The notes: generated from the sequence alone by a model not told the origin. 64,000 nt of DNA from Ferrovibrio sp. (GCF_036381655.1 NZ_DASVCJ010000020.1:21484-85483); one strand, 5' to 3'; counted from the stretch's first letter, positions 3,132 to 16,216 are shown. Translations and numbers: made by a program.

Positions 3132-5420
3132 ATGCTTCAAAGACGCCATCTTCGGACTGCCCTGCTTGCTGTCGTGTCGTTGGGCGGACTGGCCGGCGTC
3201 CTCTATTTCTTCGACTTCTCCGCCATCGCCGCCTCACTGGACAATCTGCGGCTGACGACGCTTGGGCTGGCCCTGGCGCTGATCGTCGCGAATTCGCTGC
3301 TGGCGCTGCTGCGCTTTCGTTCGGTTCTGAAGTCCTTCGGCTACCGGCCGAAATGGCGGGATATCTTCTTCGCCTTTTCCATCGGCCAAATCTCGAATTA
3401 CCTTCTGTTCAACGTCGTCGGCCAAAGCCTCAGCCGGGCGACGGCGCTGACCAGTGCCGGCGTGCCCTTCGCCGCATCCGTGATGGTGACCTACTGGGAA
3501 CGGCTGCTGGCGGCGGGGCTGCTGTTCCTGCTCAGCATCGGCGGCGCGCTGTATCTTTTCCTGAGCATCCAGATCGATCTGGAGGCCGGCGGCGCGTATT
3601 TGATCTCGCTTCTCGCCGCCATGGCGGTGACCAGCGGCGCGGTTCTCTGGCTGGTGATCCACAAGACCGATTTCGAGCTTTCCGCCGCCGGGGCGTTGCG
3701 CCAGCTGGGAAGGCTTTGGCCCAGCATCGCCCTGACGCTGGCCGCCCAGGCGCTGATGCTGGCGGCCTATCTGGCAATCCTTGGCGATCTCTTCCTGCCG
3801 AACATGACCGGCGATGTCGTTGCTGCGCTCACCATCGTCATGTTCTCGGCCAGCCTGCCGATCAGCTTCTCGGGCTGGGGCATCCGCGAACTCAGCGCGG
3901 CCAAGGCATTGGGGGCGCTGGGACTGGATCCGGCGGCGGCCGTCGCCGGGGCGGTCGCGATCGGCCTGTTGTCGATGGTGGCCCTGCTCGGCTTCGGCCT
4001 GGTCGGCACGATTTTGCTGTTGCGGCGCCGGCCGGGCGGCAGCATTGCCGCGATGCCTGTCTCCATGGATGGCAGCGTCTCCCGCTGGAGCAATGTCATG
4101 GTCGCCGGCAGCGCCATTCTTTGTGCGGTGCTGCTCTATTTCCAGATCCGCATTCCCCTCGAGGGCGGCGAAGTGACGGCGAATGCCGGAGACATCCTGG
4201 CCCTGACCGGCTTGGGCTTTCTGATCTTTTTCATGTGGTCGCGGCAGAGCCTGACGCCATTGCCGTGTTCCCTGGTGATCGGCCTGTGCGCCATTTCAAT
4301 ACTGCTGTTCGCCAGCCTGCTGTTCGGCTATGCCCGTTTCGGCTCGAATAGCTGGGCTCTGGTCAATCGCGGCTTCGGATGGCTTATCATCCTGGGCTAT
4401 GTCGCAGTCGGCGCCTCGACCGCCCTGGTGCCGGAAAGATGGGGCAGAAGCCTGCTGCTGACCACCTTCGTCGTTGCGGGCGCCAGCGTCGCCGCGATTC
4501 AGCTCGGCCTGCTGATTTTGACGTTGTTCGGCCTCTCCCTATCCAAAGACGCCTTTATCATCCCCTTGCGCGGCTACGCGACAAACTCGAATGCCTTCGC
4601 CTTTCAATTGATCATGACGGCGGCTTGCGCGATCACCGCCAGCCGTATCGGCGCGTTCGTCAGACGCGAGGCGGCACTGCATGGCATCCTCGCCGTCATC
4701 GCTGTGGCAATCTATTATTCGCATTCACGCGCCGGCATGGGCATGCTGATCATCACGCTGATCATGATGATCGTCTTCAGCCGCCGGGAGCAGCGCCGAC
4801 AGGCGATAATGGCCTGCGGCACCGTTTTGGCTGCGCTGCTGGCGGCACTTGCGCTTCCGTTCATCATCGACGGGCTTACGGCGATTGCCAGAGCCTTGCT
4901 CGCCAACAAATCCGAGCTTCTGGTAAGTCCCGGCGTGATGCAGTATCTCTCGCCGATACTGGAACGCGCCTATGATGCCGGCGACCGCTGGAGCAGCATC
5001 GTCCAGGGCTGGCAGTTATGGCTTCAGCACCCAATTTTCGGCGGCGGCCTCGGCTCCTACATCCAGATGCGCGAGGAAATGCACCTGCCTTTCCTGATCA
5101 TCCATTCCATCCCCGTATGGCTGCTTGCGGAAATGGGATTGATCGGCTTCGTCGTGGTGGCCGCTATCCTTGTCAAGCTTGCTTCCAGCGCCTTCCGGAT
5201 GCTCAGGCAAGACGATAACCACGGCTGGGGTCTCGGGCTGCTGATCATTCTCACCTGCATCACGGCCTCTGGCCTGGTACATGATTTCTTCTACCAGCGC
5301 ACATTCTGGTTCCTACTCGGCCTTTTCCTGGCAACTCCACTGCAGCGCGGCGAAAAGACCGCGGCCGCGGCCGATTCAGCCGGCAATCGCATTGGTGGAG
5401 AGGCGGCAACTTCTCTATAG
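3132..5420 (+). CDS. Polytopic membrane protein: lysylphosphatidylglycerol-synthase-TM (UPF0104, flippase-like) domain fused to O-antigen ligase (Wzy_C)-like domain
   Basis: N-half LALLRFRSVL...FSIGQISNYLLFNVVGQ...WERLL and LPISFSGWGIRE; C-half HSRAG, RWSSIVQGWQLWLQHPIFGGGLG and IHSIPVWLLAEMGLIG. Confidence 0.8.
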   Translation: MLQRRHLRTALLAVVSLGGLAGVLYFFDFSAIAASLDNLRLTTLGLALALIVANSLLALLRFRSVLKSFGYRPKWRDIFFAFSIGQISNYLLFNVVGQSLSRATALTSAGVPFAASVMVTYWERLLAAGLLFLLSIGGALYLFLSIQIDLEAGGAYLISLLAAMAVTSGAVLWLVIHKTDFELSAAGALRQLGRLWPSIALTLAAQALMLAAYLAILGDLFLPNMTGDVVAALTIVMFSASLPISFSGWGIRELSAAKALGALGLDPAAAVAGAVAIGLLSMVALLGFGLVGTILLLRRRPGGSIAAMPVSMDGSVSRWSNVMVAGSAILCAVLLYFQIRIPLEGGEVTANAGDILALTGLGFLIFFMWSRQSLTPLPCSLVIGLCAISILLFASLLFGYARFGSNSWALVNRGFGWLIILGYVAVGASTALVPERWGRSLLLTTFVVAGASVAAIQLGLLILTLFGLSLSKDAFIIPLRGYATNSNAFAFQLIMTAACAITASRIGAFVRREAALHGILAVIAVAIYYSHSRAGMGMLIITLIMMIVFSRREQRRQAIMACGTVLAALLAALALPFIIDGLTAIARALLANKSELLVSPGVMQYLSPILERAYDAGDRWSSIVQGWQLWLQHPIFGGGLGSYIQMREEMHLPFLIIHSIPVWLLAEMGLIGFVVVAAILVKLASSAFRMLRQDDNHGWGLGLLIILTCITASGLVHDFFYQRTFWFLLGLFLATPLQRGEKTAAAADSAGNRIGGEAATSL

Positions 5421-5455
5421 TCCCCTATACTACTGCGCATCCTGGGGGGTGAGCC

Positions 5456-6034
5456 GTGCCAGAAGGCACCACGCAACCGATCTTTGCCGACGAGCCGATC
5501 TTATCGGAGGTTGCCCGCTACTGGGCCGCCAAGCGCAACGGGCGCCTGATGCCGGACCGGACGGATATCGATCCGCTGCAGCTTCGCCCCGGCATATGGC
5601 CCAATCTCCTGATCACCGAGCCGGTGCCGCAGTCGACGGCGATGCGCTATCGCCTGGTCGGCTCGGCCCATGTGCAGCGCTATACCTACGATTTCACCGG
5701 CAAGACCACCGCCGATATCATGCAGGGCAGCTATCGCGACTATATGGAGCGGATCTACGGCACCGTGCTGCAGCAGGCGCTGCCGGTCTATTCCGAAAGC
5801 CTGTTCCGCTGGGACAATGCCGACAGCATCCTGCAACAGGCTTTCACCCGCCGCCTCATGCTGCCGCTCAGCCGCGGCACGCCCGACGTTGCGGCCATGG
5901 TGCTCAGCGTGCAGGTCTGGCCGACGGCGATTCCCTACGAGCCGCGGTCGATCTCGGAGCTGAGCGGCAGCGGCGGCTTCAGCCAGGGCGATTTCGTGCC
6001 GCTCGATCGCGACCGCTTCACGCCGCTGTCCTAG
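5456..6034 (+). CDS. Stand-alone PAS-like domain protein (PAS_5/DUF1457 type)
   Basis: YWAAKRNGRLMPDRTDIDP, YRLVGS, DFTGK and RRLMLPLS motifs. Confidence 0.8.
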   Translation: MPEGTTQPIFADEPILSEVARYWAAKRNGRLMPDRTDIDPLQLRPGIWPNLLITEPVPQSTAMRYRLVGSAHVQRYTYDFTGKTTADIMQGSYRDYMERIYGTVLQQALPVYSESLFRWDNADSILQQAFTRRLMLPLSRGTPDVAAMVLSVQVWPTAIPYEPRSISELSGSGGFSQGDFVPLDRDRFTPLS

Positions 6035-6075
6035 CAAGGCCCCAGATCGAGGACCCCCAGTTCAAGGGCCCCTCA

Positions 6076-6471
6076 TCAAGGGCCGTGGAAGGTTTCCATG
6101 TAGCGCGTTTGCACGATCAGCGGCACCGGGCCGGTATTGCTGACGCTGGTGCCGGCGCGGCCGAAGGCCTCATAGATGTCCGCCTTGCCACCAGCCGGAA
6201 CATCGACCACGCGGCCGGAACCGGCGAAGCGAAGCCGCCCCGCCTCGGCGCCGGCATTGCGGATGGTGACGGTGGTGTAGTTGCCACGCTCGCCGGTATC
6301 GATCGTCGTCGTCGCGCCGGGCGCGAGGCTGAACTGGCCCGCCGCTGCGGTATCGGGCCAGGTCACGGCGAGGCTGCCGAGCAGCAAGGCGCCGGCACAG
6401 ACCTGCCGGGCGGTGGCAATCCAATCCGGGGCAATCCAATCCGGGGCGATCAAATCTGTCCGTTCTGTCAC
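6076..6471 (-). CDS. Hypothetical secreted beta-rich protein
   Basis: Hydrophobic stretch VCAGALLLGSLAVTW then AAA cleavage-like site; small Gly/Thr-rich mature region; start uncertain. Confidence 0.55.
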   Translation of the reverse strand: MTERTDLIAPDWIAPDWIATARQVCAGALLLGSLAVTWPDTAAAGQFSLAPGATTTIDTGERGNYTTVTIRNAGAEAGRLRFAGSGRVVDVPAGGKADIYEAFGRAGTSVSNTGPVPLIVQTRYMETFHGP

Positions 6472-6619
6472 TTCGCGGCCTCCATCTGGAATACCCCTCC
6501 CGCCCAGCAGGGTAGGACGGCGCCGGCCGGGCGGTAGTGGCGGAGATCACAAAGCGCATCGATTCCCAGGATCGCCCGCGGCGATCAGGGGTGAAAAACG
6601 CGCGAAAGATCAGAATCGA

Positions 6620-7870
6620 TCAGGAGCGGATCGCGGGTCCCGGCGCCGGCGTCTGGGTCTCGGCGGCGCCCAGGCAGTGGCGCAGATCGGCGCCAGCGAA
6701 ATTCGCCCGCTCCAGCTTGGCATTGCGCAGATCGATGTGATCGAGCACGGCGCCGCGGAAATCGGCGCCGGACAGATCGGCGCCGGACAGGATGGGATAG
6801 ATGATGCGGCCGGTCGCCTGCTGGCTGGCGCTGAACAGCGGCGCCCCGGTCAGCTTGGCGCCACGGAACGTGGCGCCGCGCAGATCGGCGCCGGTGAAGT
6901 TGACCCCGCCCAGATCGGCCTGATCGAAATTCGCCTTGACCATTTCGGCGCCGAGGAAACTGGCGAAGAGCAGCTGGGCATGGGTGAAGCTGGCATTCTG
7001 CAGATCGCAGCCATGCAGCTCCGCGCCGCGCAGATCGCAGCTCGAGAAGTCGCAGCCGGCGAGCCGCTTGCCGCTCAGGATGGCGCGCTGGCCCTCGGCG
7101 CCGCCGGTGGCGATCCAGCGGCTATGGGCATGCAGCAGAACCTCGATCTCGGTCGGCAGGCTGGCCGATTTGCGGTGCACCGCGCCCGACAGGTCGACGC
7201 CCTTCAGATTCACCTTGGAGAGATCGACATTGCGCAGATTGGCGCCCTGCAGATCGGCGCCCTGCAGCAGGACGCCATCCATCTTGGCGCCGACCAGATT
7301 GACGTCGCGCAGACGCGCCGCGGTCAGGTTGGCGCCGCTCAGATCCGCGCCGGCGAGGTTGACCGCGAACAGGCTGGCATTGGAGAAATTCGCGCCCGTC
7401 GCGGAGGCGACGGCGAGATTGGCTTCGTCGAGCTGGGCCGCGCGCAGATCGGCGCCGTCGATCTTGGCCTCTTTCAGGTTGGCCGCCTGCGACTTGATCC
7501 CGCCATCCCCGGCCACGATCTGGCCGGGCCGCAGATCGGCCTGATTCAGCGAGGCGCCGCGCAGGATGGCTTTCATCATGTTGGCGCCGCGCAGATCGCT
7601 GCGATCCATGACCGCGCCCGACAGATCGGCATGCATGAAATCGCCGGCGAACAGATCGGCGCGGCGCAGCTCCGCCTTGACCAGCGAGGCGCCGACGAAC
7701 TGGCAGCGCGACAGAATCGCGTCGTTGAGCTTGGCGTTGTCCAGCCGCAGGAAGCTGAAATCCTCGCCCCGGCGCTGCAGACGCTCGCCGTCGCTGCGTC
7801 CGTTCGCCCAGGCGGCGTGGCGGGACAGCGCAACGGTCAATTGCGATGACGGGAAACGCAGTTCTGCCAT
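6620..7870 (-). CDS. Pentapeptide repeat protein, paralog 1
   Basis: Long A(D/N)Lxx arrays in two modules, each opened by an H-x-x-W cap (LSRHAAW; LHAHSRWIATGGAEGQRA). Confidence 0.92.
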   Translation of the reverse strand: MAELRFPSSQLTVALSRHAAWANGRSDGERLQRRGEDFSFLRLDNAKLNDAILSRCQFVGASLVKAELRRADLFAGDFMHADLSGAVMDRSDLRGANMMKAILRGASLNQADLRPGQIVAGDGGIKSQAANLKEAKIDGADLRAAQLDEANLAVASATGANFSNASLFAVNLAGADLSGANLTAARLRDVNLVGAKMDGVLLQGADLQGANLRNVDLSKVNLKGVDLSGAVHRKSASLPTEIEVLLHAHSRWIATGGAEGQRAILSGKRLAGCDFSSCDLRGAELHGCDLQNASFTHAQLLFASFLGAEMVKANFDQADLGGVNFTGADLRGATFRGAKLTGAPLFSASQQATGRIIYPILSGADLSGADFRGAVLDHIDLRNAKLERANFAGADLRHCLGAAETQTPAPGPAIRS

Positions 7871-8026
7871 TGGCTGGCAACCCTCACAGAGAGAATTACT
7901 TTGGAATGAAATCTAGCAAAACAGCCTAGGACGCCGGCTGGGGACGGACAAGGGACTAGCCGCGCCGCCGAAGGGCGAGGGGAAATCCTGCCCATCCTTG
8001 GCAGGGCCGGCAGACGGCGGCGAGTT

Positions 8027-8063
8027 AAGACTCGGTAACGCAACTGAAAGACTTGGTAACGCA
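8027..8063. repeat. 16-bp direct repeat with 21-bp period upstream of pentapeptide paralog 1
   Basis: AAGACTCGGTAACGCA (8027-8042) and AAGACTTGGTAACGCA (8048-8063), one mismatch. Confidence 0.85.
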
Positions 8064-8081
8064 CCGGCCCGCCGTCTTCGG

Positions 8082-9308
8082 CTATTTCCGGCCGCTCGGG
8101 ATGCCGACGCACTGGCGCAGTTCGGCGCCCTGCAGGTTGGCGCCGTCCATCACGGCAGTGGCGAAATCGATTCCTTCGAAGACGGCGCCGCGCAGATCGG
8201 CCCTAGCGAGATCCGCCTCCTCGAAACGAGGATAGACGACCTTGCCGGTCTTCTGGTTGCGCCCGTTATAGATGTCGACCCCGACCGCCCGCGCGCCGCG
8301 CCAGCGGCTTTCGGCCAGGCAGGTCTTCGTGAAATTGGTGCCGCTTAGATCGGCCAGATCGAAGGTGACCTTGCGCAGGTTGGCGCCGACGAAGCTGGCG
8401 AACATCATCTGCGCGTTGGAGAAGTCGGCGCCTTCCAGCGACGCGCCGTGCAGTTCGGCGCCGCGCAGATCGCAGCCCGCGAAATTGATGCCATCGAGCT
8501 TCTGCCCGCTGAGCACCGCGCGCTGGCCTTCCGCGCCGGCGGTCGCGATCCAGGTGCTGTGCTGCTTCAGCACGGTTTCGATCTCCGGCGGCAGGCTGTC
8601 GCCCTTGCGATAGATCGCGCCCTGCAGCGAGACGCCGTCGAGATCAACCTGGCTGAGATCGACATTGCGCAGATTGGCGCCGCGCAGATCGGTGCCCTGC
8701 AGGCGCGCGCCGGCGAGATTGGCGCCGATCAGGTTGGCGTCCTTCATCTTCGCCCCGGCCAGATTGGCGCCGGAGAGATCGGCGCCGGCAAGGTTGACCG
8801 CGTACATGCTGGCATTGCTGAAGGAGGCGTTGACAGCGGAGGAGACCGCCATGCTGGCATTGTCGAGCTGCGCGTTCTTGAATTCGGCGCCGTCCAGCTT
8901 GGCGCCGTCGAGATTGGCGGCGACTTCCTTGCTGCCGCCCTGCTCGACCAGCATGAGCTGGCCCGGACGCAGATCCACCTGCGCCAGCGAGGCCTGGCGC
9001 AGGACGGCGCGGCCGAGATTGGCGCCGCGCAGATCGGCGCGGTCGAACACCACGCGCGTCAGATCGGCATGCTGGAAGTCGGCGCAGAACAGATCGGCGC
9101 GGCGCAGCTGCGCGCCGGCCAGCGAGGCATGGCTGAACTCCGCACGCGGCAGGATGGCATCGTCCAGCTTGACGCCGTCGAGCTTCAGCTTGCCGTAATG
9201 GCCGCCGGCATTCTGCAGTCGGCTGCCGCCCGGCCGACCGGCCAGGAAGGCGGCATGGCGGGAGAGAACGATCTGCACCTCATGCGGCGGTATCATGTGA
9301 TCGGACAT
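8082..9308 (-). CDS. Pentapeptide repeat protein, paralog 2
   Basis: Same two-module layout (LSRHAAF; LKQHSTWIATAGAEGQRA) and DLRPGQ loop. Confidence 0.92.
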   Translation of the reverse strand: MSDHMIPPHEVQIVLSRHAAFLAGRPGGSRLQNAGGHYGKLKLDGVKLDDAILPRAEFSHASLAGAQLRRADLFCADFQHADLTRVVFDRADLRGANLGRAVLRQASLAQVDLRPGQLMLVEQGGSKEVAANLDGAKLDGAEFKNAQLDNASMAVSSAVNASFSNASMYAVNLAGADLSGANLAGAKMKDANLIGANLAGARLQGTDLRGANLRNVDLSQVDLDGVSLQGAIYRKGDSLPPEIETVLKQHSTWIATAGAEGQRAVLSGQKLDGINFAGCDLRGAELHGASLEGADFSNAQMMFASFVGANLRKVTFDLADLSGTNFTKTCLAESRWRGARAVGVDIYNGRNQKTGKVVYPRFEEADLARADLRGAVFEGIDFATAVMDGANLQGAELRQCVGIPSGRK

Positions 9309-9447
9309 CGTGTGCGTCCAAAGCCGCTATTGTCGTTCAACTGAGGATGGTGAGAGAACGCTAGTTATCGCAACATGTTAATGCAACCAGAAAATGCCGG
9401 TTGCCAGAATTGATAAGATTCGCAATTAGTTATGGAGTTACCGGCGT

Positions 9448-10683
9448 TTAGCCGCGGCGGCCGCGCAGCCCGGTGCACTGGCGCAGGTCGGCGCCAGCGA
9501 AATTCACCTTCTCGAAAACCACCCCGGCGAAATCGACGCCCTCCACGGTGGCGCCGCGCAGATCCGCGCCGGTCAGGTCGGCATTGTCGAAGCGCGGGAA
9601 GATCACCTTGCCGGTCTTCTGGTTCAGGGCATTGAAGATTTCGACGCCGACAAGCTGCGCGCCGCGCAGGGCCGCGCCGGCCAGCAGCGCGCCGGAAAAA
9701 TTCGCGCCGCCCAGGCTGGCCTGATCGAAATTCGCCCGCCGCAGATCGGCGCCGATGAAGCTGGTGAACAGCAACTGGCTCTTGGTGAAGAAGGCGCCGG
9801 CCAGATTGGTCTCGTGGAAAACCGCCGCGCGCAGATCGCAACTGGAGAAATCCATGCCCGGCAGCTTCATCTTGCTGAAGACGGCGCGCTCGCCCTCCAG
9901 GCCGTTCGAGGCGATCCACTTGCCATGCGCGGCCAGCATCGCTTCGATCTCCGGCGGCAGTTTCGCCTGGCCTTCGCGGTAGATCGCGCCCTGCAGATTG
10001 GCGCCGCTCAGATCGACGCCGCTCAGATCGACGCTGCGCAGATTGGCGCCGCGCAGATCGCAGCCGGCCAGCTTGGCGCCGTCCAGATTGGCGCCGACGA
10101 AGCTGGTCTCCTTCATGCGGGCGCCGGAGAAATCCGCCCCCGAAAGATCGGCGCCGGTCAGGTTGACGGCGAACAGCGAGGCGCCGACGAAGGTGGCGCC
10201 GACCGCGCTGGAATTGCTCATATTGGCATGATCGAGATGGGCATGGCCGAGATTGGCCTCCTGCAGATTGGCGCCCGACAGGTTGACCGGCACGTCCTCG
10301 CGGTTTTCGTCGCCCTCCTTCTCATGGCGCACGATCTGGCCGGGCCGCAGATCGGCCTGGCGGAACGAGGTCTGCTTGAGCTTTGCCATCAGGAAATTGG
10401 CGCCGCGCAGATCGGCCCGGTCGAACATCGTATTGGACAGGTCGGCGCGGCTGAAATCGACGCCGAACAGATCGGCCCGCAGGAACTGCGCGCCCTTCAG
10501 CGACGAGCCGGCGAAACTGCAGCCCGGCAGGATGGCATCGTCGAGTACCACGGCATCCAGCTTGAGATCGGCAAAATCCTCGCCGCGGCGCTGCAGGCGC
10601 ACGCCGCCGGGTCGGCTGTTGAGATAGGCTTGATGACGCGACAAGGCCCAGACGACGGGCTCGGGCGGCAAACGCACGGACAT
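9448..10683 (-). CDS. Pentapeptide repeat protein, paralog 3
   Basis: Same layout (LSRHQAY; LAAHGKWIASNGLEGERA); start 10683 chosen by alignment with the paralogs (alternative 10758). Confidence 0.9.
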   Translation of the reverse strand: MSVRLPPEPVVWALSRHQAYLNSRPGGVRLQRRGEDFADLKLDAVVLDDAILPGCSFAGSSLKGAQFLRADLFGVDFSRADLSNTMFDRADLRGANFLMAKLKQTSFRQADLRPGQIVRHEKEGDENREDVPVNLSGANLQEANLGHAHLDHANMSNSSAVGATFVGASLFAVNLTGADLSGADFSGARMKETSFVGANLDGAKLAGCDLRGANLRSVDLSGVDLSGANLQGAIYREGQAKLPPEIEAMLAAHGKWIASNGLEGERAVFSKMKLPGMDFSSCDLRAAVFHETNLAGAFFTKSQLLFTSFIGADLRRANFDQASLGGANFSGALLAGAALRGAQLVGVEIFNALNQKTGKVIFPRFDNADLTGADLRGATVEGVDFAGVVFEKVNFAGADLRQCTGLRGRRG

Positions 10684-10850
10684 GGAATTCTGCTTTTGGT
10701 CGGTCGTGAATCTTTCGTTGCCACCGGCAGTGTAAAGAAAGCGGCTCTGCGCCGCCATGCTTTTGTCGGACAGGAGCCGCTCTTATTCACGCTTCCCTTG
10801 CCGCGGCGGCGCCGCTAGTGTGCAGGCAAAGACGGGGGAGATTCGGTTCA

Positions 10851-11324
10851 ATGGCCGCTGACAAAGCCGCGAGTGCCAAAAAGACGATCGTGAAAGCATC
10901 CAGGAGCAAGACGTCCGGCAAAACGACGCCGGGCAAGAAGACCAAGGCCGCGGCGGACACCGCCAACCGCCGCCGCTTTCAGCGCCGCGATACCAGGATC
11001 ATCGCGCGGCTGGAGCATGGCGCGACCGAGACCCCCGGCGCGGTGACCAACCTGTCGCTGCAGGGCTGCCTGTTCACCCCGCGCGTCGACCTTGCCGCCG
11101 GAACGCGCATCAGGCTGTGGCTGGCGAACGAGACGAAGCCGGTCGCCGCCACGGTGAAAGCCGTCAGCGCCCGGGGCGTGCATTGCCTGCTGCATGCCGG
11201 CGGCGCCACGCTCAGCCGCCTGTCGGCCGATCTCGACGACATGGCCCTGCTGATGCTGAGCGCCGGGCGGCCGCGCTCCAATCACCTGCCCGGGAAGCCG
11301 GCCGCGAAGAAGCGCAAGGCCTGA
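10851..11324 (+). CDS. PilZ domain protein
   Basis: RRFQR (RxxxR) and NLSLQG (D/NxSxxG) motifs; Lys-rich disordered termini. Confidence 0.85.
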   Translation: MAADKAASAKKTIVKASRSKTSGKTTPGKKTKAAADTANRRRFQRRDTRIIARLEHGATETPGAVTNLSLQGCLFTPRVDLAAGTRIRLWLANETKPVAATVKAVSARGVHCLLHAGGATLSRLSADLDDMALLMLSAGRPRSNHLPGKPAAKKRKA

Positions 11325-11340
11325 CGCCGCAAACGGCGCG

Positions 11341-11371
11341 AAAAAAGGCCGCCGGGAGAACCCGGCGGCTT
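11341..11371 (-). terminator. Intrinsic terminator of the T1SS operon
   Basis: GGCCGCCGGG-AGAA-CCCGGCGGCT hairpin with A6 on the + strand (U-tract on the - strand). Confidence 0.8.
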
Positions 11372-11395
11372 GCCGTGCATGCGGCGATCGTCCGG

Positions 11396-13066
11396 TCAGG
11401 CGAGCAGCACGTCGAAATGCAGATGCCCGCTGTCGCTGCTGCCATCCTTGTCGGCGATCGCATAGGCCACCGAATCATGGCCGGTGAAGCCGGGCTTCGG
11501 CGTGTAGATGCCGGCGCCCTTCGCCGCATCCCAGGCGACCTTGCCGCCCTCTGCGGTGACGCTGTCCATGCCGGTGATGTGCAGGCCGCCATCGGCGCCC
11601 TTGTCGTTCATCAGCAGATACTTGCCGGCGAAGTAATCCTTCGTGCCGGCCTTGATCCGGTGATAATCGTCGCCGACCGAGACCGGGTTGCCGCTGCCGC
11701 CAGTGGCCGGCGGGGCGGCACCGGCCGCGTCCGAGCCCGAACCGGAGCCTGAACCGCCGGTGCCGGTGCCGGTGCCCGTTCCCGTGCCAGAGCTGGTGCC
11801 GCTGCCGACCTGCACATGGATCGTCGCCGTATCGCTGCTGCCATCGGCATCCTTCAGCGTGTAATCGAAGGAATCCTTGCCCTGCCAGCCTTTCGGCGGG
11901 ATGTAGCGCACCGTGCCGTTGCTGGCATCCCAGGTGATGGTCGCGCCGGCATCGCTGTGGGTTTCGACATGACTGACATGCAGGCCGCCATCGGCGCCCT
12001 TGTCGTTCCAGGTGAGATACTTGGTGTTGAACCAGAGCGACTTGTCGGGATCGATCTTGTAATTGTCGTCATAGGCGAGGACCGGATTGCCGCTGCCGCC
12101 CGAGGCCGGCGGAGCCGAGCCGGCATTCGTACCGCCTGACGTGCCACCCGACGTTCCGCCCGATGTGCCGCCGGCAGGATTGGCGGCCTTGGCGTGATCG
12201 AGGTGCATGGCGAAATCGTGGTAGATCTCGCTCTGGTGCTTCTGCACGGTTTCCGAGCCGTAAAAGCTGCCATTCATCAGGCTGGGCGCCTTGTTGTCGG
12301 ACCAGTAATGGTCGCCGTGGCCGGTCTTCACATAGGCGCCGCCCCAGCTATCGGCGGCCGGATTGTTGTTGTCGGCATTGTCGATGAGATAGAGCAGCGA
12401 GGGCGTATCGCCCATCTTCAGGCCCCAGGGGCGCGCGTGGTAGAAATACTCGCCCAGCGCGCCATGGCCCTGCGCGTCGCTCATGCGCCAGCTATTGTTG
12501 CCGGCGCCGCCGTCATCGACATACATGCCGCGCATCGTGGTGTTGCTCTCGATCCACCACAGATCCTTGAAGGTGTTGTAGATGTAGTCGCGGGCGGCGG
12601 TATCCTGCTGGGTATTCCAGGCCCCCAGGCTGTAAAGCCTGATCTTGCCGGCGATGGACGGATCGTCATGCAGCGCCTGGGCGACATCGGTCAGCGCGCC
12701 CCAGGCGAGCACCCAGAGCGGCTCGGCCGAGGCCTTCGCGGCGGCGACGATCTGCTTGGAGCCTTCGGTTGCCGTCGAATAGCCCTGCGCGGGCGCGACA
12801 TGAACATTGCCCTGCTTGGTGATCGAGCGCAGGTAATCCGGCGTCGCATAATCGGCCGACCAGGTCTTCAGCTTGCCGTAATCCTGCGCATAGGCGTCGA
12901 TCACCTTGCGGATATCCGCCGTGCTGCCGGAATGGCCGGTCGGCGTGGAGACCAGGCCGACCAGGTTGACCTTGTCGCCATAGAGCAGGGCATGAACCAT
13001 CGACTGGGCATCGTCGGGATCCGAGCCGCCGATATCGGTGGAGATGAGTACGCGTGGCTTGGCCAT
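11396..13066 (-). CDS. DUF1593 (nucleoside hydrolase-like) domain protein with two cadherin-like/Ig-like repeats; probable T1SS substrate
   Basis: STDIGGSDPDDAQS, PLWVLAWGALTD and KMGDTPS motifs; two repeats (DD.Y...NDKGADGGLH...Y.P..G..G.DS..Y...D.DGSSD); G/S/T linkers; no signal peptide. Confidence 0.85.
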   Translation of the reverse strand: MAKPRVLISTDIGGSDPDDAQSMVHALLYGDKVNLVGLVSTPTGHSGSTADIRKVIDAYAQDYGKLKTWSADYATPDYLRSITKQGNVHVAPAQGYSTATEGSKQIVAAAKASAEPLWVLAWGALTDVAQALHDDPSIAGKIRLYSLGAWNTQQDTAARDYIYNTFKDLWWIESNTTMRGMYVDDGGAGNNSWRMSDAQGHGALGEYFYHARPWGLKMGDTPSLLYLIDNADNNNPAADSWGGAYVKTGHGDHYWSDNKAPSLMNGSFYGSETVQKHQSEIYHDFAMHLDHAKAANPAGGTSGGTSGGTSGGTNAGSAPPASGGSGNPVLAYDDNYKIDPDKSLWFNTKYLTWNDKGADGGLHVSHVETHSDAGATITWDASNGTVRYIPPKGWQGKDSFDYTLKDADGSSDTATIHVQVGSGTSSGTGTGTGTGTGGSGSGSGSDAAGAAPPATGGSGNPVSVGDDYHRIKAGTKDYFAGKYLLMNDKGADGGLHITGMDSVTAEGGKVAWDAAKGAGIYTPKPGFTGHDSVAYAIADKDGSSDSGHLHFDVLLA

Positions 13067-13140
13067 GAGGGGTCCTTTTTACGCTAGGGATATTGCAAAC
13101 CGGGTAATGTGCGTAAGGTGCGTGATTTCCGATCTGCGCC

Positions 13141-14463
13141 TCAGCTTTCGTTCATGCTCTGCCGCAGCGAGTCGATGAGGGGCTGGGTCAGATAGCCGAG
13201 CGCGGTGCGCGTGCCGGCCATGACCATGACCTCGGCGGGCATGCCCGGCGTGAGTTCGATATCGGGCGCCAGCCGGGCGAGCTGCGCGCGGTCGACCTCG
13301 ACGCGGACCAGGTAATAAGGCTTGCTGCTGTTGGGCTCGACGATGCGGTCGGCCGAGACGCTGCGCACCCGGCCCTCGATGCGCGGCTGGTTGCGCAGCT
13401 TGTAGGCCGAGAGCACCACGCGGGCCGGCAGGCCTTCATGCACGATGTCGATGTCGTTCGGCGCGATATGCGCCTCGATCAGCAATTCGTCGTCGCGCGG
13501 CACGATGTCGAGGATCGGCTGGCCGGCGCCGACGATGCCGCCGATGGTGCGCGCCTTCATCTGCACGACGGTGCCGGCGACCGGCGCGATGACCACGGTC
13601 CGGCGCAGCACGTCCTCGGCCGCCGCCAGCTTGTCGCGCGCCGCGGCGATCTGCCCGGTGACATCGGCCAGTTGCGTGCTGATCTCCTCCTGGCGCTGCG
13701 ATTCCATCGTGCTGATCTGCACATCGGTTTCGGCGATGGTCTGCAGCGCGCGGGCGATGGCGGCCTCGTTGGCGCCGCGCGCGCCGACGATCTCGGCCTG
13801 GGCGCGCTGCAGCGCCAGCAGCCGCGGGCGGCGCTCCAGCCCCTTTTCCAGCAGCGTGTTGACGCCCTTCACTTCCTCGGCGATCAGCGCGAGCTGCCGG
13901 GTCTGGCCGGCGATCTGCGCGCGCAGGCCGGCGATCTCGTCATCGACCTGGGCGCTGCGTTGCTGCAGCAGGGTGCGGCGCTGCTCCAGCGCGGCGCGGC
14001 GCTGCTGCATCAATTCGCGTTGCGCCGTCAGCAGCGCGGCGACCTCCGGCTCGGCGGCATGGCCGCGCAACTGCTCGGCGATGCGCGGCTCGCCCTCGCC
14101 GGCGCGCTCGGCCAGCAGGCGGCCTTCCACCGCCAGCAATTGCCGCAGATCGCCCAGGGCGAGGTCGCGGGCGGCGCGGGCGGCCTTGTCGTCCAGCACG
14201 ATCAGCGTGTCGCCGGCCTCGACATGGCTGCCATCCTGCACCAGCAGCTGCCTGACGATGCCGCCTTCGAGATGCTGCACGGTGCGGCGGTTGCCGTCCG
14301 GACTGACGACGCCCGGCCCGAGCGCGGCGGTGGCGAGCGGCGCCAGCGCCGACCAGGCGCCGAGGCCGCCGAAAAAGGCGAGGCAGACCAAGGCGCCGGC
14401 AATGAGCGGGCGGCGCAGGCTGGCTCGCAGGTCGGGCGCCCCGATCTCGCTGAGATGGGTCAT
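13141..14463 (-). CDS. HlyD/PrtE-family type I secretion membrane fusion protein
   Basis: TVQHLEGGIVRQLLVQDGSHV, coiled coil, IAPVAGTV and LTPGMPAEV motifs. Confidence 0.95.
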   Translation of the reverse strand: MTHLSEIGAPDLRASLRRPLIAGALVCLAFFGGLGAWSALAPLATAALGPGVVSPDGNRRTVQHLEGGIVRQLLVQDGSHVEAGDTLIVLDDKAARAARDLALGDLRQLLAVEGRLLAERAGEGEPRIAEQLRGHAAEPEVAALLTAQRELMQQRRAALEQRRTLLQQRSAQVDDEIAGLRAQIAGQTRQLALIAEEVKGVNTLLEKGLERRPRLLALQRAQAEIVGARGANEAAIARALQTIAETDVQISTMESQRQEEISTQLADVTGQIAAARDKLAAAEDVLRRTVVIAPVAGTVVQMKARTIGGIVGAGQPILDIVPRDDELLIEAHIAPNDIDIVHEGLPARVVLSAYKLRNQPRIEGRVRSVSADRIVEPNSSKPYYLVRVEVDRAQLARLAPDIELTPGMPAEVMVMAGTRTALGYLTQPLIDSLRQSMNES

Positions 14464-14485
14464 GAACGGATCTCCTGTAAGAAAA

Positions 14486-16216
14486 TCAGACGGTGCGGAT
14501 GGCGGCCTTGCGGGCGGCGGGCTGTCCGGTCACCAGCGGCCAGACCTCTTCGATCGGACCGAAGGCCTGCGCCATGCCGTCGCGCAGGAACAGCAGCATG
14601 TCGCTATGCTCGAGCATGCTGGGGCGGTGATTGACCATGATCACCGTGCAGCCCTGCTGCCGGGCGGCCTTGAGCGCGGCCAGCAAAGCCGCCTCGCCTT
14701 CGCCGTCCAGATGCGCGTTCGGCTCGTCCAGCACCAGCAGCTTCGGATTGCCATACAGCGCGCGGGCCAGGCCGATGCGCTGGCGCTGGCCGCCGGAGAG
14801 CTGGCTGGCGCTGGCATCGAGGCGCGTCTCGTAGCCCTGCGGCAGGCGCAGGATCATCTCGTGCACATGCGCCTGCCGCGCCGCCGCGACGATCAGCGCC
14901 GGGTCGATGCTGTCATTGCCATGCCCCATGCGGGCGATGTTCTCGGCGACGGTGCCGGCGAACAGGGTCACCTCCTGCGGCAGATAGCCGAGATGCGGGC
15001 CGATTTCGGCGCGGTTCCAGGCGGCCAGATCGGCATGATCGAGCCGCACATGGCCGGCGCTGGGCGGCAGCGCGCCGATCAGCAGGCGGCAGAGCGTGCT
15101 CTTGCCGGCGGCGGACGGCCCGATGATGCCGAGCGACTGGCCCGGCCTGAGCGCGAAGGAGATGTTGCGCAGCACCGGCTTTTCCGCGCCCGCCGGCGCA
15201 TAGGTCAGTCCTTCGACCGAAAGCGCGCCCTGCGGCTGCGGCAGCGGCATCGGCGGCGGCGCCTGCGGATGGCGGTTGAGCAGAACGGCAAGACGCTGCC
15301 ACGAGTGGCGCACGCCGACGAACTGCTTCCAGCTTCCGAGCAGCTGGTCGATCGGCGCCAGCGCCCGGCCCAGCAGGATGGAGGCGGCGATCATGCCGCC
15401 CGAGGTCAGCTCGCCGCGCACCGCCAGCCAGGCACCAAGGCCGAGGATGGCGGTCTGCACGAACATGCGCAGCGCCTTGGTCAGGCCATGCAGCCGCAAT
15501 GTGCGGTCGGCGGCATTCTGCTGCGCCGTCAGCGCGCGATCCTGCGCGCCGCGCCAGCGGCTCAGCAAGGCCGGCAGCAGGCCGAGCGCGCGGACCAGTT
15601 CGCCGCTGCGCAGCGTGGCGTCGGCCAGCGCATAGGCGTTGACCTGATGCGCTTCGCCCTCATGCACCGCGCGGCGGGTGAGCCATTCGCCCGCCACCAT
15701 CAGGGCCAGCAGCAAAAGGCCGGCGCCGAGCGCGAAGCCGCCCAGCCAGGGATGCATGATCCACAGCACGGCAAGGAAGACCGGCGTCCAGGGCGCATCG
15801 AAGAGCGGCGCCATGGCCGGCCCGGTGAGAAAGCCGCGCACCTGTGCGAGATCGCGCAAGGGCTGCGTGCCGGTCGGCGTGCCGCTGGCGGCCGCATCGA
15901 GGCCGGCGGCGATCAGGCGTCCGGCCAGCGCGCGGTCGAGCCAGGCGCCGAGGCGCGACAGCAGATTGCTGCGCACCGTCTCCAGCGCGCCGAAGGCCAT
16001 ATAGGCCGCCGTCGCCATCACCGTGAGCCAGATGAGCGTATCAAGATTGGAACTGCTCAACACGCGGTCGTAGACCTGCATCATGTAGAGCGGCGAGGTC
16101 AGGACCAGCAGGTTGATCGCCAGACTGAAGCCCGCCACCGCGAGCAGGGCAAAGCGGAACGGGCCGGTCATCAGGTGGAACAGCGATGCGGGTATTGCGG
16201 CTCGGGCAAAACTCAT
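14486..16216 (-). CDS. PrtD-family type I secretion ABC transporter (permease/ATPase)
   Basis: LYMMQVYDRVLSS, GRALAPID, GPSAAGKST, LSGGQRQRIGLARALYG and LDEPNAHLD motifs. Confidence 0.96.
   Translation of the reverse strand: MSFARAAIPASLFHLMTGPFRFALLAVAGFSLAINLLVLTSPLYMMQVYDRVLSSSNLDTLIWLTVMATAAYMAFGALETVRSNLLSRLGAWLDRALAGRLIAAGLDAAASGTPTGTQPLRDLAQVRGFLTGPAMAPLFDAPWTPVFLAVLWIMHPWLGGFALGAGLLLLALMVAGEWLTRRAVHEGEAHQVNAYALADATLRSGELVRALGLLPALLSRWRGAQDRALTAQQNAADRTLRLHGLTKALRMFVQTAILGLGAWLAVRGELTSGGMIAASILLGRALAPIDQLLGSWKQFVGVRHSWQRLAVLLNRHPQAPPPMPLPQPQGALSVEGLTYAPAGAEKPVLRNISFALRPGQSLGIIGPSAAGKSTLCRLLIGALPPSAGHVRLDHADLAAWNRAEIGPHLGYLPQEVTLFAGTVAENIARMGHGNDSIDPALIVAAARQAHVHEMILRLPQGYETRLDASASQLSGGQRQRIGLARALYGNPKLLVLDEPNAHLDGEGEAALLAALKAARQQGCTVIMVNHRPSMLEHSDMLLFLRDGMAQAFGPIEEVWPLVTGQPAARKAAIRTV

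Follow-up and report, generated by a model that had tools for sequence, protein, structure and literature searches.

Pentapeptide-repeat proteins (PRPs; PF00805, Rfr fold) are delimited as a superfamily by a run of eight or more contiguous A(D/N)LXX-type pentapeptides, and most of them are without a known function. Members of the MfpA/Qnr/AlbG group are about 200 residues long, consist of one helix, dimerize through a C-terminal helix and expose an anionic, DNA-like surface; the electrostatic surface of MfpA resembles B-DNA (PMC8145042). YjbI/PerA of Caulobacter crescentus, a protein of 183 residues at the outer membrane, possesses a secretion signal, two flanking Cys pairs and a charged C-terminal tail (PMC12864828). 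CipG is a pentapeptide-repeat adaptor that binds GlgC (PMC13506006), and an N-terminal cap helix has been reported for Np275. Here we analyzed a tandem trio of PRP genes (PRP-A, PRP-B and PRP-C) in 64,000 nucleotides of Ferrovibrio sp. DNA (GCF_036381655.1, NZ_DASVCJ010000020.1:21484-85483), the whole of which is called the window below and from whose first letter all positions are counted. The explanation that we favor, with a probability of roughly 0.6, is that the trio represents an old and intact tandem expansion, in Ferrovibrio, of a family of cytoplasmic two-module PRPs that is widespread among Alphaproteobacteria; these proteins are most likely rigid beta-solenoid binders that share one face and carry further surfaces specific to each copy.

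Anatomy and predicted fold of the gene trio

6620..7870, minus strand: PRP-A, two-module pentapeptide-repeat protein of 416 residues; last array gene in this genome
8082..9308, minus strand: PRP-B, two-module pentapeptide-repeat protein of 408 residues
9448..10683, minus strand: PRP-C, two-module pentapeptide-repeat protein of 411 residues; the copy adjoining the PilZ gene

The spacers between the three genes measured 211 bp (B–A) and 139 bp (C–B), and the three proteins aligned colinearly with pairwise identities of 54–56%. The reading frames and the alignment agree with a preliminary description of this DNA, made from the sequence alone, in which three adjacent, co-oriented genes of about 410 residues with one colinear design, intact frames and spacers of 140–210 bp had been noticed. 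Every cap, loop and Cys motif listed there was present in the trio proteins, namely LSRHxx[WFY]..G.RL, DLRPGQ, LP.EIE..L..H..WI...G.EG.RA and TG[RK][IV]x[YF]P, together with a conserved Cys about 8–18 residues before the C-terminus. PF00805 was matched by A, B and C at E values of about 1e-68 to 1e-72 (A, 8e-72; B, 8e-68) in 8–9 stretches per protein. Counting by repeat register gave about 63 pentapeptides per protein, and runs of eight or more contiguous repeats, as in the superfamily, were found in the trio proteins.

An open reading frame (ORF) longer than PRP-C reaches position 10758. The start of the gene was set at 10683, where the preliminary description had also placed it, because the methionine of MS[AVL]R[IL]PPE is the start in all 16 PRP-C orthologues and because an upstream ATG opens a frame of only 8–9 codons in at least two genomes (L011 and L017). 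Long plus-strand ORFs (6281–7849, 8448–9344 and 9814–10818; 298–522 residues) lie antisense to each of the PRP genes; these were rejected as genes and regarded as by-products of GC-rich repeat codons, which may mislead gene callers. An Rfam scan of positions 5400–11500 returned nothing but a sub-threshold chance match to a snoRNA.

AlphaFold2 was run for PRP-B with an alignment of 106 sequences, and a second run was made for PRP-C. The PRP-B model had a predicted local distance difference test score (pLDDT) of 92.6 and a predicted template modeling score (pTM) of 0.76, and the PRP-C model, in which the layout was the same, had scores of 94.2 and 0.81, respectively. In the PRP-B model, the N-terminal module consists of a cap helix (residues 9–23) and a beta-helix with a strand every five residues (32–233), which is interrupted directly after DLRPGQ by a hairpin (116–129); the C-terminal module consists of a second cap helix (241–255) and a second beta-helix (265–402), with a hairpin (344–358) that bears TG[RK]. 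Both models end in the beta-helix and a short tail, with no C-terminal helix in either; PRP-B contains a three-residue helical turn (405–407) and PRP-C none. According to these models, the trio proteins are predicted to form the right-handed quadrilateral beta-helix of the superfamily. A Foldseek search against the PDB returned only pentapeptide-repeat structures as top matches (HetL, designed beta1 solenoids, Np275/276, Qnr, AlbG and MfpA), and none of these top matches was a two-module structure.

Global profile alignment of the N-terminal against the C-terminal module was colinear and placed cap 1 on cap 2, with a score and probability that are inflated by the repeats, and BLASTP of the protein halves gave the same colinearity for A and B. 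This colinearity of the modules and their caps supports an internal duplication within each protein, as had been proposed in the preliminary description. A search with the C-terminal module alone returned only generic, unnamed single-module PRPs with 30–40% identity.

History, selection and regulation of the array

The genomic loci nearest to the window all belong to Ferrovibrio (Alphaproteobacteria; Rhodospirillales in NCBI). In 16 other Ferrovibrio genomes, a divergent PilZ gene is followed by C, B and A in this order, and every complete frame is intact (copy D of locus L016 is cut by the locus end), with orthologue identities of 78–82% for A, 70–81% for B and 79–86% for C (overall 70–86%). 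Five genomes contain a fourth copy, D, after A, and one contains a fifth copy, E, between B and A; depending on the genome, the array locus contains between 1 and 5 PRP copies. Maximum-likelihood analysis placed A, B, C and D each in a monophyletic group of its own with 100% support, and the array clade stood apart from the other family members. Because each of the four copies is monophyletic, the array duplications are older than the divergence of the sampled Ferrovibrio species. DNA identity between copies was at most about 74% over the longest shared stretches, and recent gene conversion was rejected, as no long near-identical stretches were present between copies.

Copy D is absent from this genome. 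It was probably lost here, because D clusters with the single-copy genes of deeper relatives in the maximum-likelihood tree. Compared with its relatives, this genome carries a deletion at 6472–6619. The gap between A and a small ORF at 6076–6471 is about 150 bp here (6472–6619), and 1–3 kb lie between the two in the other Ferrovibrio genomes that contain an orthologue of this ORF, four of which hold copy D in that interval.

Two-module genes were counted across the GTDB order, that is, in Ferrovibrio and ten other genera, and numbered 6–10 in all 24 Ferrovibrio genomes (this one counted) and 0–5 in the other ten genera. This genome has four more two-module copies outside the trio. These include a second tandem pair on another contig (C12:28434–31116; locus L046), whose products of 438 and 437 residues are 48% identical to each other; this pair and a pair in Thalassospira arose independently. 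The second pair of this genome is more conserved than the trio, with an orthologue identity of 80–94% for one member and 70–86% for the other. The Thalassospira pair (locus L040, 4546–7275; 424 residues, 68% identical) is located beside a divergent response-regulator-HDOD gene.

Hundreds of relatives with 410–440 residues and the same two-module design were found in Alphaproteobacteria, with generic names only. Across 106 sequences, H18, R30, R114, G116, H250, W253 and G258 were conserved in at least 90%, and G261 was invariant. The trio had been presented in the preliminary description as the best candidate for an undescribed system; it is instead a genus-level tandem expansion of this widespread family. 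The same description had left room for the family already having an assigned function, and none is assigned to the two-module family. In Caulobacterales (Maricaulis, L042 and L043; Asticcacaulis, L044), the single two-module PRP gene comes after a His_Phos_1 gene and one resembling cytidine/tRNA-adenosine deaminases, and HSP20 is encoded close by.

Pairwise Nei-Gojobori ratios of nonsynonymous to synonymous substitution (dN/dS), calculated among orthologues at an unsaturated dS of about 0.65, were 0.175 for A, 0.231 for B, 0.180 for C and 0.140 for D. Since dN/dS lies at 0.14–0.23, the trio genes are under purifying selection; together with the intact frames, this speaks against the relaxed selection that the preliminary description had considered as a counterargument. 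Analysis by region revealed values between 0.08 and 0.44, with loop 1 as the least constrained region (0.27–0.44) and loop 2 among the most constrained regions in B and C; likewise, loop 1 is variable and loop 2 conserved among copies. In addition, 47 alignment columns were conserved within each orthologue group yet different between groups, and these columns are spread over the helix surface. The earlier proposal that divergent loops give the copies different targets therefore holds for loop 1, which varies, but not for the conserved loop 2, and is thus only half right. Outward positions had a mean entropy of 0.13–0.20 on one face per module versus 0.6–0.9 on another, where faces were assigned from the repeat register and not from coordinates. 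The combination of a conserved face with copy-specific sites is consistent with one surface for binding or association that all copies share, alongside others that are particular to each copy.

Conserved elements were also found upstream of each gene:

7923..7951, minus strand: promoter-like motif upstream of PRP-A (TTGTCC, 17 nt, TAGGCT)
9358..9386, minus strand: promoter-like motif upstream of PRP-B (TTGCAT, 17 nt, TAGCGT)
10728..10767, minus strand: conserved element upstream of PRP-C (GACAAAAGCATGGCG, about 10 nt, GTTTCT(C/T)TA(A/C)A)

For the motif before A, matching CTTGCAGC ... TAAT/TAG blocks are kept in most of the 15 aligned B–A spacers, and for the motif before B, GGTTGC and (A/C)TAGCGTT blocks are kept in most of the 17 C–B spacers. 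These spacer motifs resemble a sigma-70 promoter, a resemblance to the consensus only; readings as sigma-54 or EcfG promoters were rejected, as the spacings misfit. A scan for terminators and promoter consensus sequences gave no signal that exceeded the shuffle background, and the trio genes are not separated by any terminator-like site. Separate transcription of the trio genes is plausible because a conserved TTGC-N17-TA motif is present in each spacer, and to this extent the separate regulation suggested in the preliminary description is sustained.

The element before C (GACAAAAGCATGGCG...GTTTCTCTAAAG) contains the most conserved non-coding blocks in 17 aligned upstream regions. Its ATG, which opens the short upstream frame mentioned above, is in this window in frame into C, and in L014 it meets no stop in the first codons read; the element may represent a leader peptide or serve as an operator. 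A 21-nt direct repeat in tandem (GCGTTACCAAGTCTTTCAGTT / GCGTTACCGAGTCTTAACTCG; 8021–8062, minus strand) precedes the promoter-like motif of PRP-A by about 70 nt, and a related single copy (GGTTAACGGATATCAAC) is conserved in the corresponding position of most other Ferrovibrio genomes. This repeat is a possible regulator binding site.

We propose that each array copy, probably with a promoter of its own, has been maintained by purifying selection from a time before the sampled species split, and that the products are most likely non-enzymatic rigid beta-solenoids, which would bind other macromolecules as adaptors or regulate them stoichiometrically. Because every copy has one conserved helix face in each module, a shared partner or self- or hetero-association through this face is suggested, and the copy-specific surface positions together with the variable loop 1 would confer an own specificity on each copy. 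Several points weigh against this proposal. The role of binding adaptor is a generic interpretation of the fold; the assignment of faces is uncertain across the loops, and a dN/dS of about 0.2 indicates only moderate constraint. No RNA run holds the trio locus, and, because the gene neighborhood was not conserved outside Ferrovibrio in the nearest outgroups checked, the context yields no function. The locus itself is an ordinary paralogue expansion that challenges no current view and opens no long-standing question. The definition of a conserved cytoplasmic two-module subfamily, however, provides a clean genetic handle, since Ferrovibrio strains such as F. xuzhouensis KCTC 42182 and F. terrae are in culture; its orthologue groups are stable, one face is conserved, and it has a PilZ neighbor throughout the genus.

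The PilZ neighbor and alternative explanations

10851..11324, plus strand: PilZ-domain protein of 157 residues, divergent, with Lys/Ala-rich basic tails

The protein encoded beside PRP-C matched PF07238 with 33 bits (cut-off, 22.5) and contains both the RxxxR (RRFQRR) and the [D/N]xSxxG (NLSLQG) motif; by domain score and motifs, it has the sequence characteristics of a PilZ receptor for cyclic di-GMP (c-di-GMP). Its start at 10851 was set by the conserved ATGGC of the orthologues. The longer ORF from 10818 has an isoelectric point (pI) of 11.7, and the tails at the N- and C-terminus are histone-H1-like. PF07238 has no other match in the genome, and all Ferrovibrio genomes checked (16 carrying the C-B-A array, 6 carrying one PRP at the locus) have the PilZ gene next to a PRP gene. 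When the PilZ domain was searched against 1.84 billion representatives, 12 relatives were obtained at E ≤ 1e-3, which were short proteins or unrelated long ones; one long match is a fusion of a methyl-accepting chemotaxis protein (MCP) with PilZ, and two others gave no PilZ match in Pfam at E ≤ 0.001. A weak match to the HC2 histone-like family was seen for one of the relatives. No PRP–PilZ fusion was found among the 12 relatives or by a chimeric-length search, both of which have limited reach for divergent PilZ domains, and PF07238 was present in none of the best 120 PRP homologues. The PilZ–PRP link is genus-wide yet limited to Ferrovibrio.

This arrangement could mean that the array and the divergent PilZ gene constitute a c-di-GMP-responsive module, in which PilZ binds or regulates the PRPs, or the PRPs sequester the very basic PilZ protein. 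We consider such a module rather unlikely. It would account for the divergent pair being kept in the 16 array genomes and in each of the eight Ferrovibrio genomes examined by means of the PilZ protein (the locus contains a single PRP in six of these), for the intact RxxxR and NxSxxG motifs, and for the position of the only PilZ match of this genome beside the array; other family members also lie near signaling genes, such as RR-HDOD (response regulator with HDOD) in Thalassospira and a CheY-like receiver beside the copy on contig C68. However, the adjacency is confined to one genus and may be inherited synteny, the matches of PilZ and PRP lie far apart in a sister-genus genome that has several of both kinds (G032), and the searches made for a fusion of the two found none. 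A narrower version, in which the sole detectable PilZ and the PRP array form one c-di-GMP-controlled unit and the PRPs are interchangeable rigid docking partners or decoys for PilZ, is improbable; if true, it would assign a first function to a family that is widespread among Alphaproteobacteria and would also represent a PilZ output of a new type. The connection to PilZ and c-di-GMP is a testable minor lead.

The preliminary description had proposed DNA mimics or scaffolds, with Qnr and MfpA as characterized examples of DNA mimicry. As mimics, the trio proteins would act on gyrase or topoisomerase IV as do Qnr, MfpA and AlbG, each two-module chain would take the place of the usual homodimer, and the copies would differ in the poisons that they protect against. 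The trio shares the fold of Qnr, appears cytoplasmic and has projecting loops like those of Qnr. Furthermore, the second tandem pair of this genome, a more distant one from the same family, lies directly upstream of EmrA-like, EmrB-like (major facilitator superfamily, MFS) and TetR genes here and in 5 of the 11 orthologous loci checked. This pair recalls the efflux-plus-immunity layout of McbEFG and AlbF/AlbG. Several genomes, however, lack the efflux link, and the trio has no part in it. The net charge of the trio proteins lies between -2 and +1 (pI 6.4–7.7), the C-terminal dimerizing helix is absent from the PRP-B and PRP-C models, and the modules are joined head to tail and not C-terminus to C-terminus. 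Scores against the equivalog models were also far below the cut-offs, at 86–92 bits versus 240 for Qnr and 80–110 bits versus 360 for MfpA. Membership of the trio in the Qnr/MfpA/AlbG group thus fails on the missing helix and the low scores, with the near-neutral charge arguing in the same direction, and it is unlikely that the proteins work like DNA mimics.

We find it very improbable that conflict has driven the array as an anti-phage, anti-toxin or immunity repertoire, with diversification through the gain and loss of genes. The variation in copy number at the locus and the low constraint on loop 1 relative to the other regions would be expected of such a repertoire, but PADLOC gave no matches for defense systems, no mobile-element genes were seen, and the composition resembles that of the flanks; the orthologue groups are clean, with purifying selection in every region, and PHROG matches were repeat-only and to families of unknown function. 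Least credible, and already disfavored, is export of the trio proteins to the envelope or as effectors, either like the secreted Caulobacter YjbI/PerA or as type I secretion substrates: secreted PRPs do exist (YjbI, PMC12864828; PipB2), and a type I secretion pair of ATP-binding cassette and membrane fusion proteins (ABC–MFP) with a likely substrate is encoded at 11396–16216, but these genes are not adjacent to the array in the 16 other Ferrovibrio loci, from which they are absent, so that the link to this system was rejected, and the trio proteins are about 410 residues long versus 183 for YjbI, lack the flanking Cys pairs, having one conserved Cys near the C-terminus, and have polar N-termini that run straight into the cap helix, with no signal-like hydrophobic stretch by eye (no predictor run). 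On the same N-terminal evidence, the trio proteins are probably cytoplasmic, as the preliminary description had assumed.

Comparison with described pentapeptide-repeat proteins

The reading of the trio as an expanded family of cytoplasmic binding proteins can be set against the known systems one by one. Among the topoisomerase-protecting proteins and their relatives (MfpA, QnrB1, AhQnr, EfsQnr, AlbG and McbG), the right-handed quadrilateral beta-helix, the cytoplasmic location and the projecting loops are the same; however, these proteins have 180–220 residues and a single helix, whereas the trio proteins have two modules, are near neutral and are without the dimer helix. C. crescentus YjbI/PerA, the sole functionally studied case found in the literature searched, is likewise an alphaproteobacterial pentapeptide-repeat beta-helix, but its secretion signal, Cys pairs and charged C-terminal tail have no counterpart in the trio (the signal being judged by eye).

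The closest likeness in architecture is to the alphaproteobacterial relatives in Thalassospira, Maricaulis, Asticcacaulis, Brevundimonas and Micavibrio, which are annotated as "pentapeptide repeat-containing protein" or COG1357 "YjbI". These share the cap helix, the beta-helix with a DLRxG-led loop, the second cap (H..W...G..G.R) and the second beta-helix with its loop, and differ from the trio in being 26–38% identical to it, in occurring as single copies or independent pairs, and in having other neighborhoods. Assignment to the Alr5209 family (NF052603) was rejected: the summed score of 140–163 bits exceeds the cut-off of 125, but it is reached through 4–6 separate stretches in a protein of 410 residues, whereas Alr5209 is a four-coil protein of about 129 residues with a single match to the 113-position model, an architecture different from that of the trio.

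The best matches in both sequence and fold among natural solved structures are the cyanobacterial proteins HetL (PDB 3DU1), Np275/Np276 (2J8K) and CipG. They have a single module, different loops and no context in common with the trio, and the trio scored 148–174 bits against the HetL equivalog model (NF047416), below its cut-off of 260. These proteins bind other proteins rather than mimic DNA, and, by analogy, CipG and HetL are a better functional comparison for the trio than the DNA mimics.

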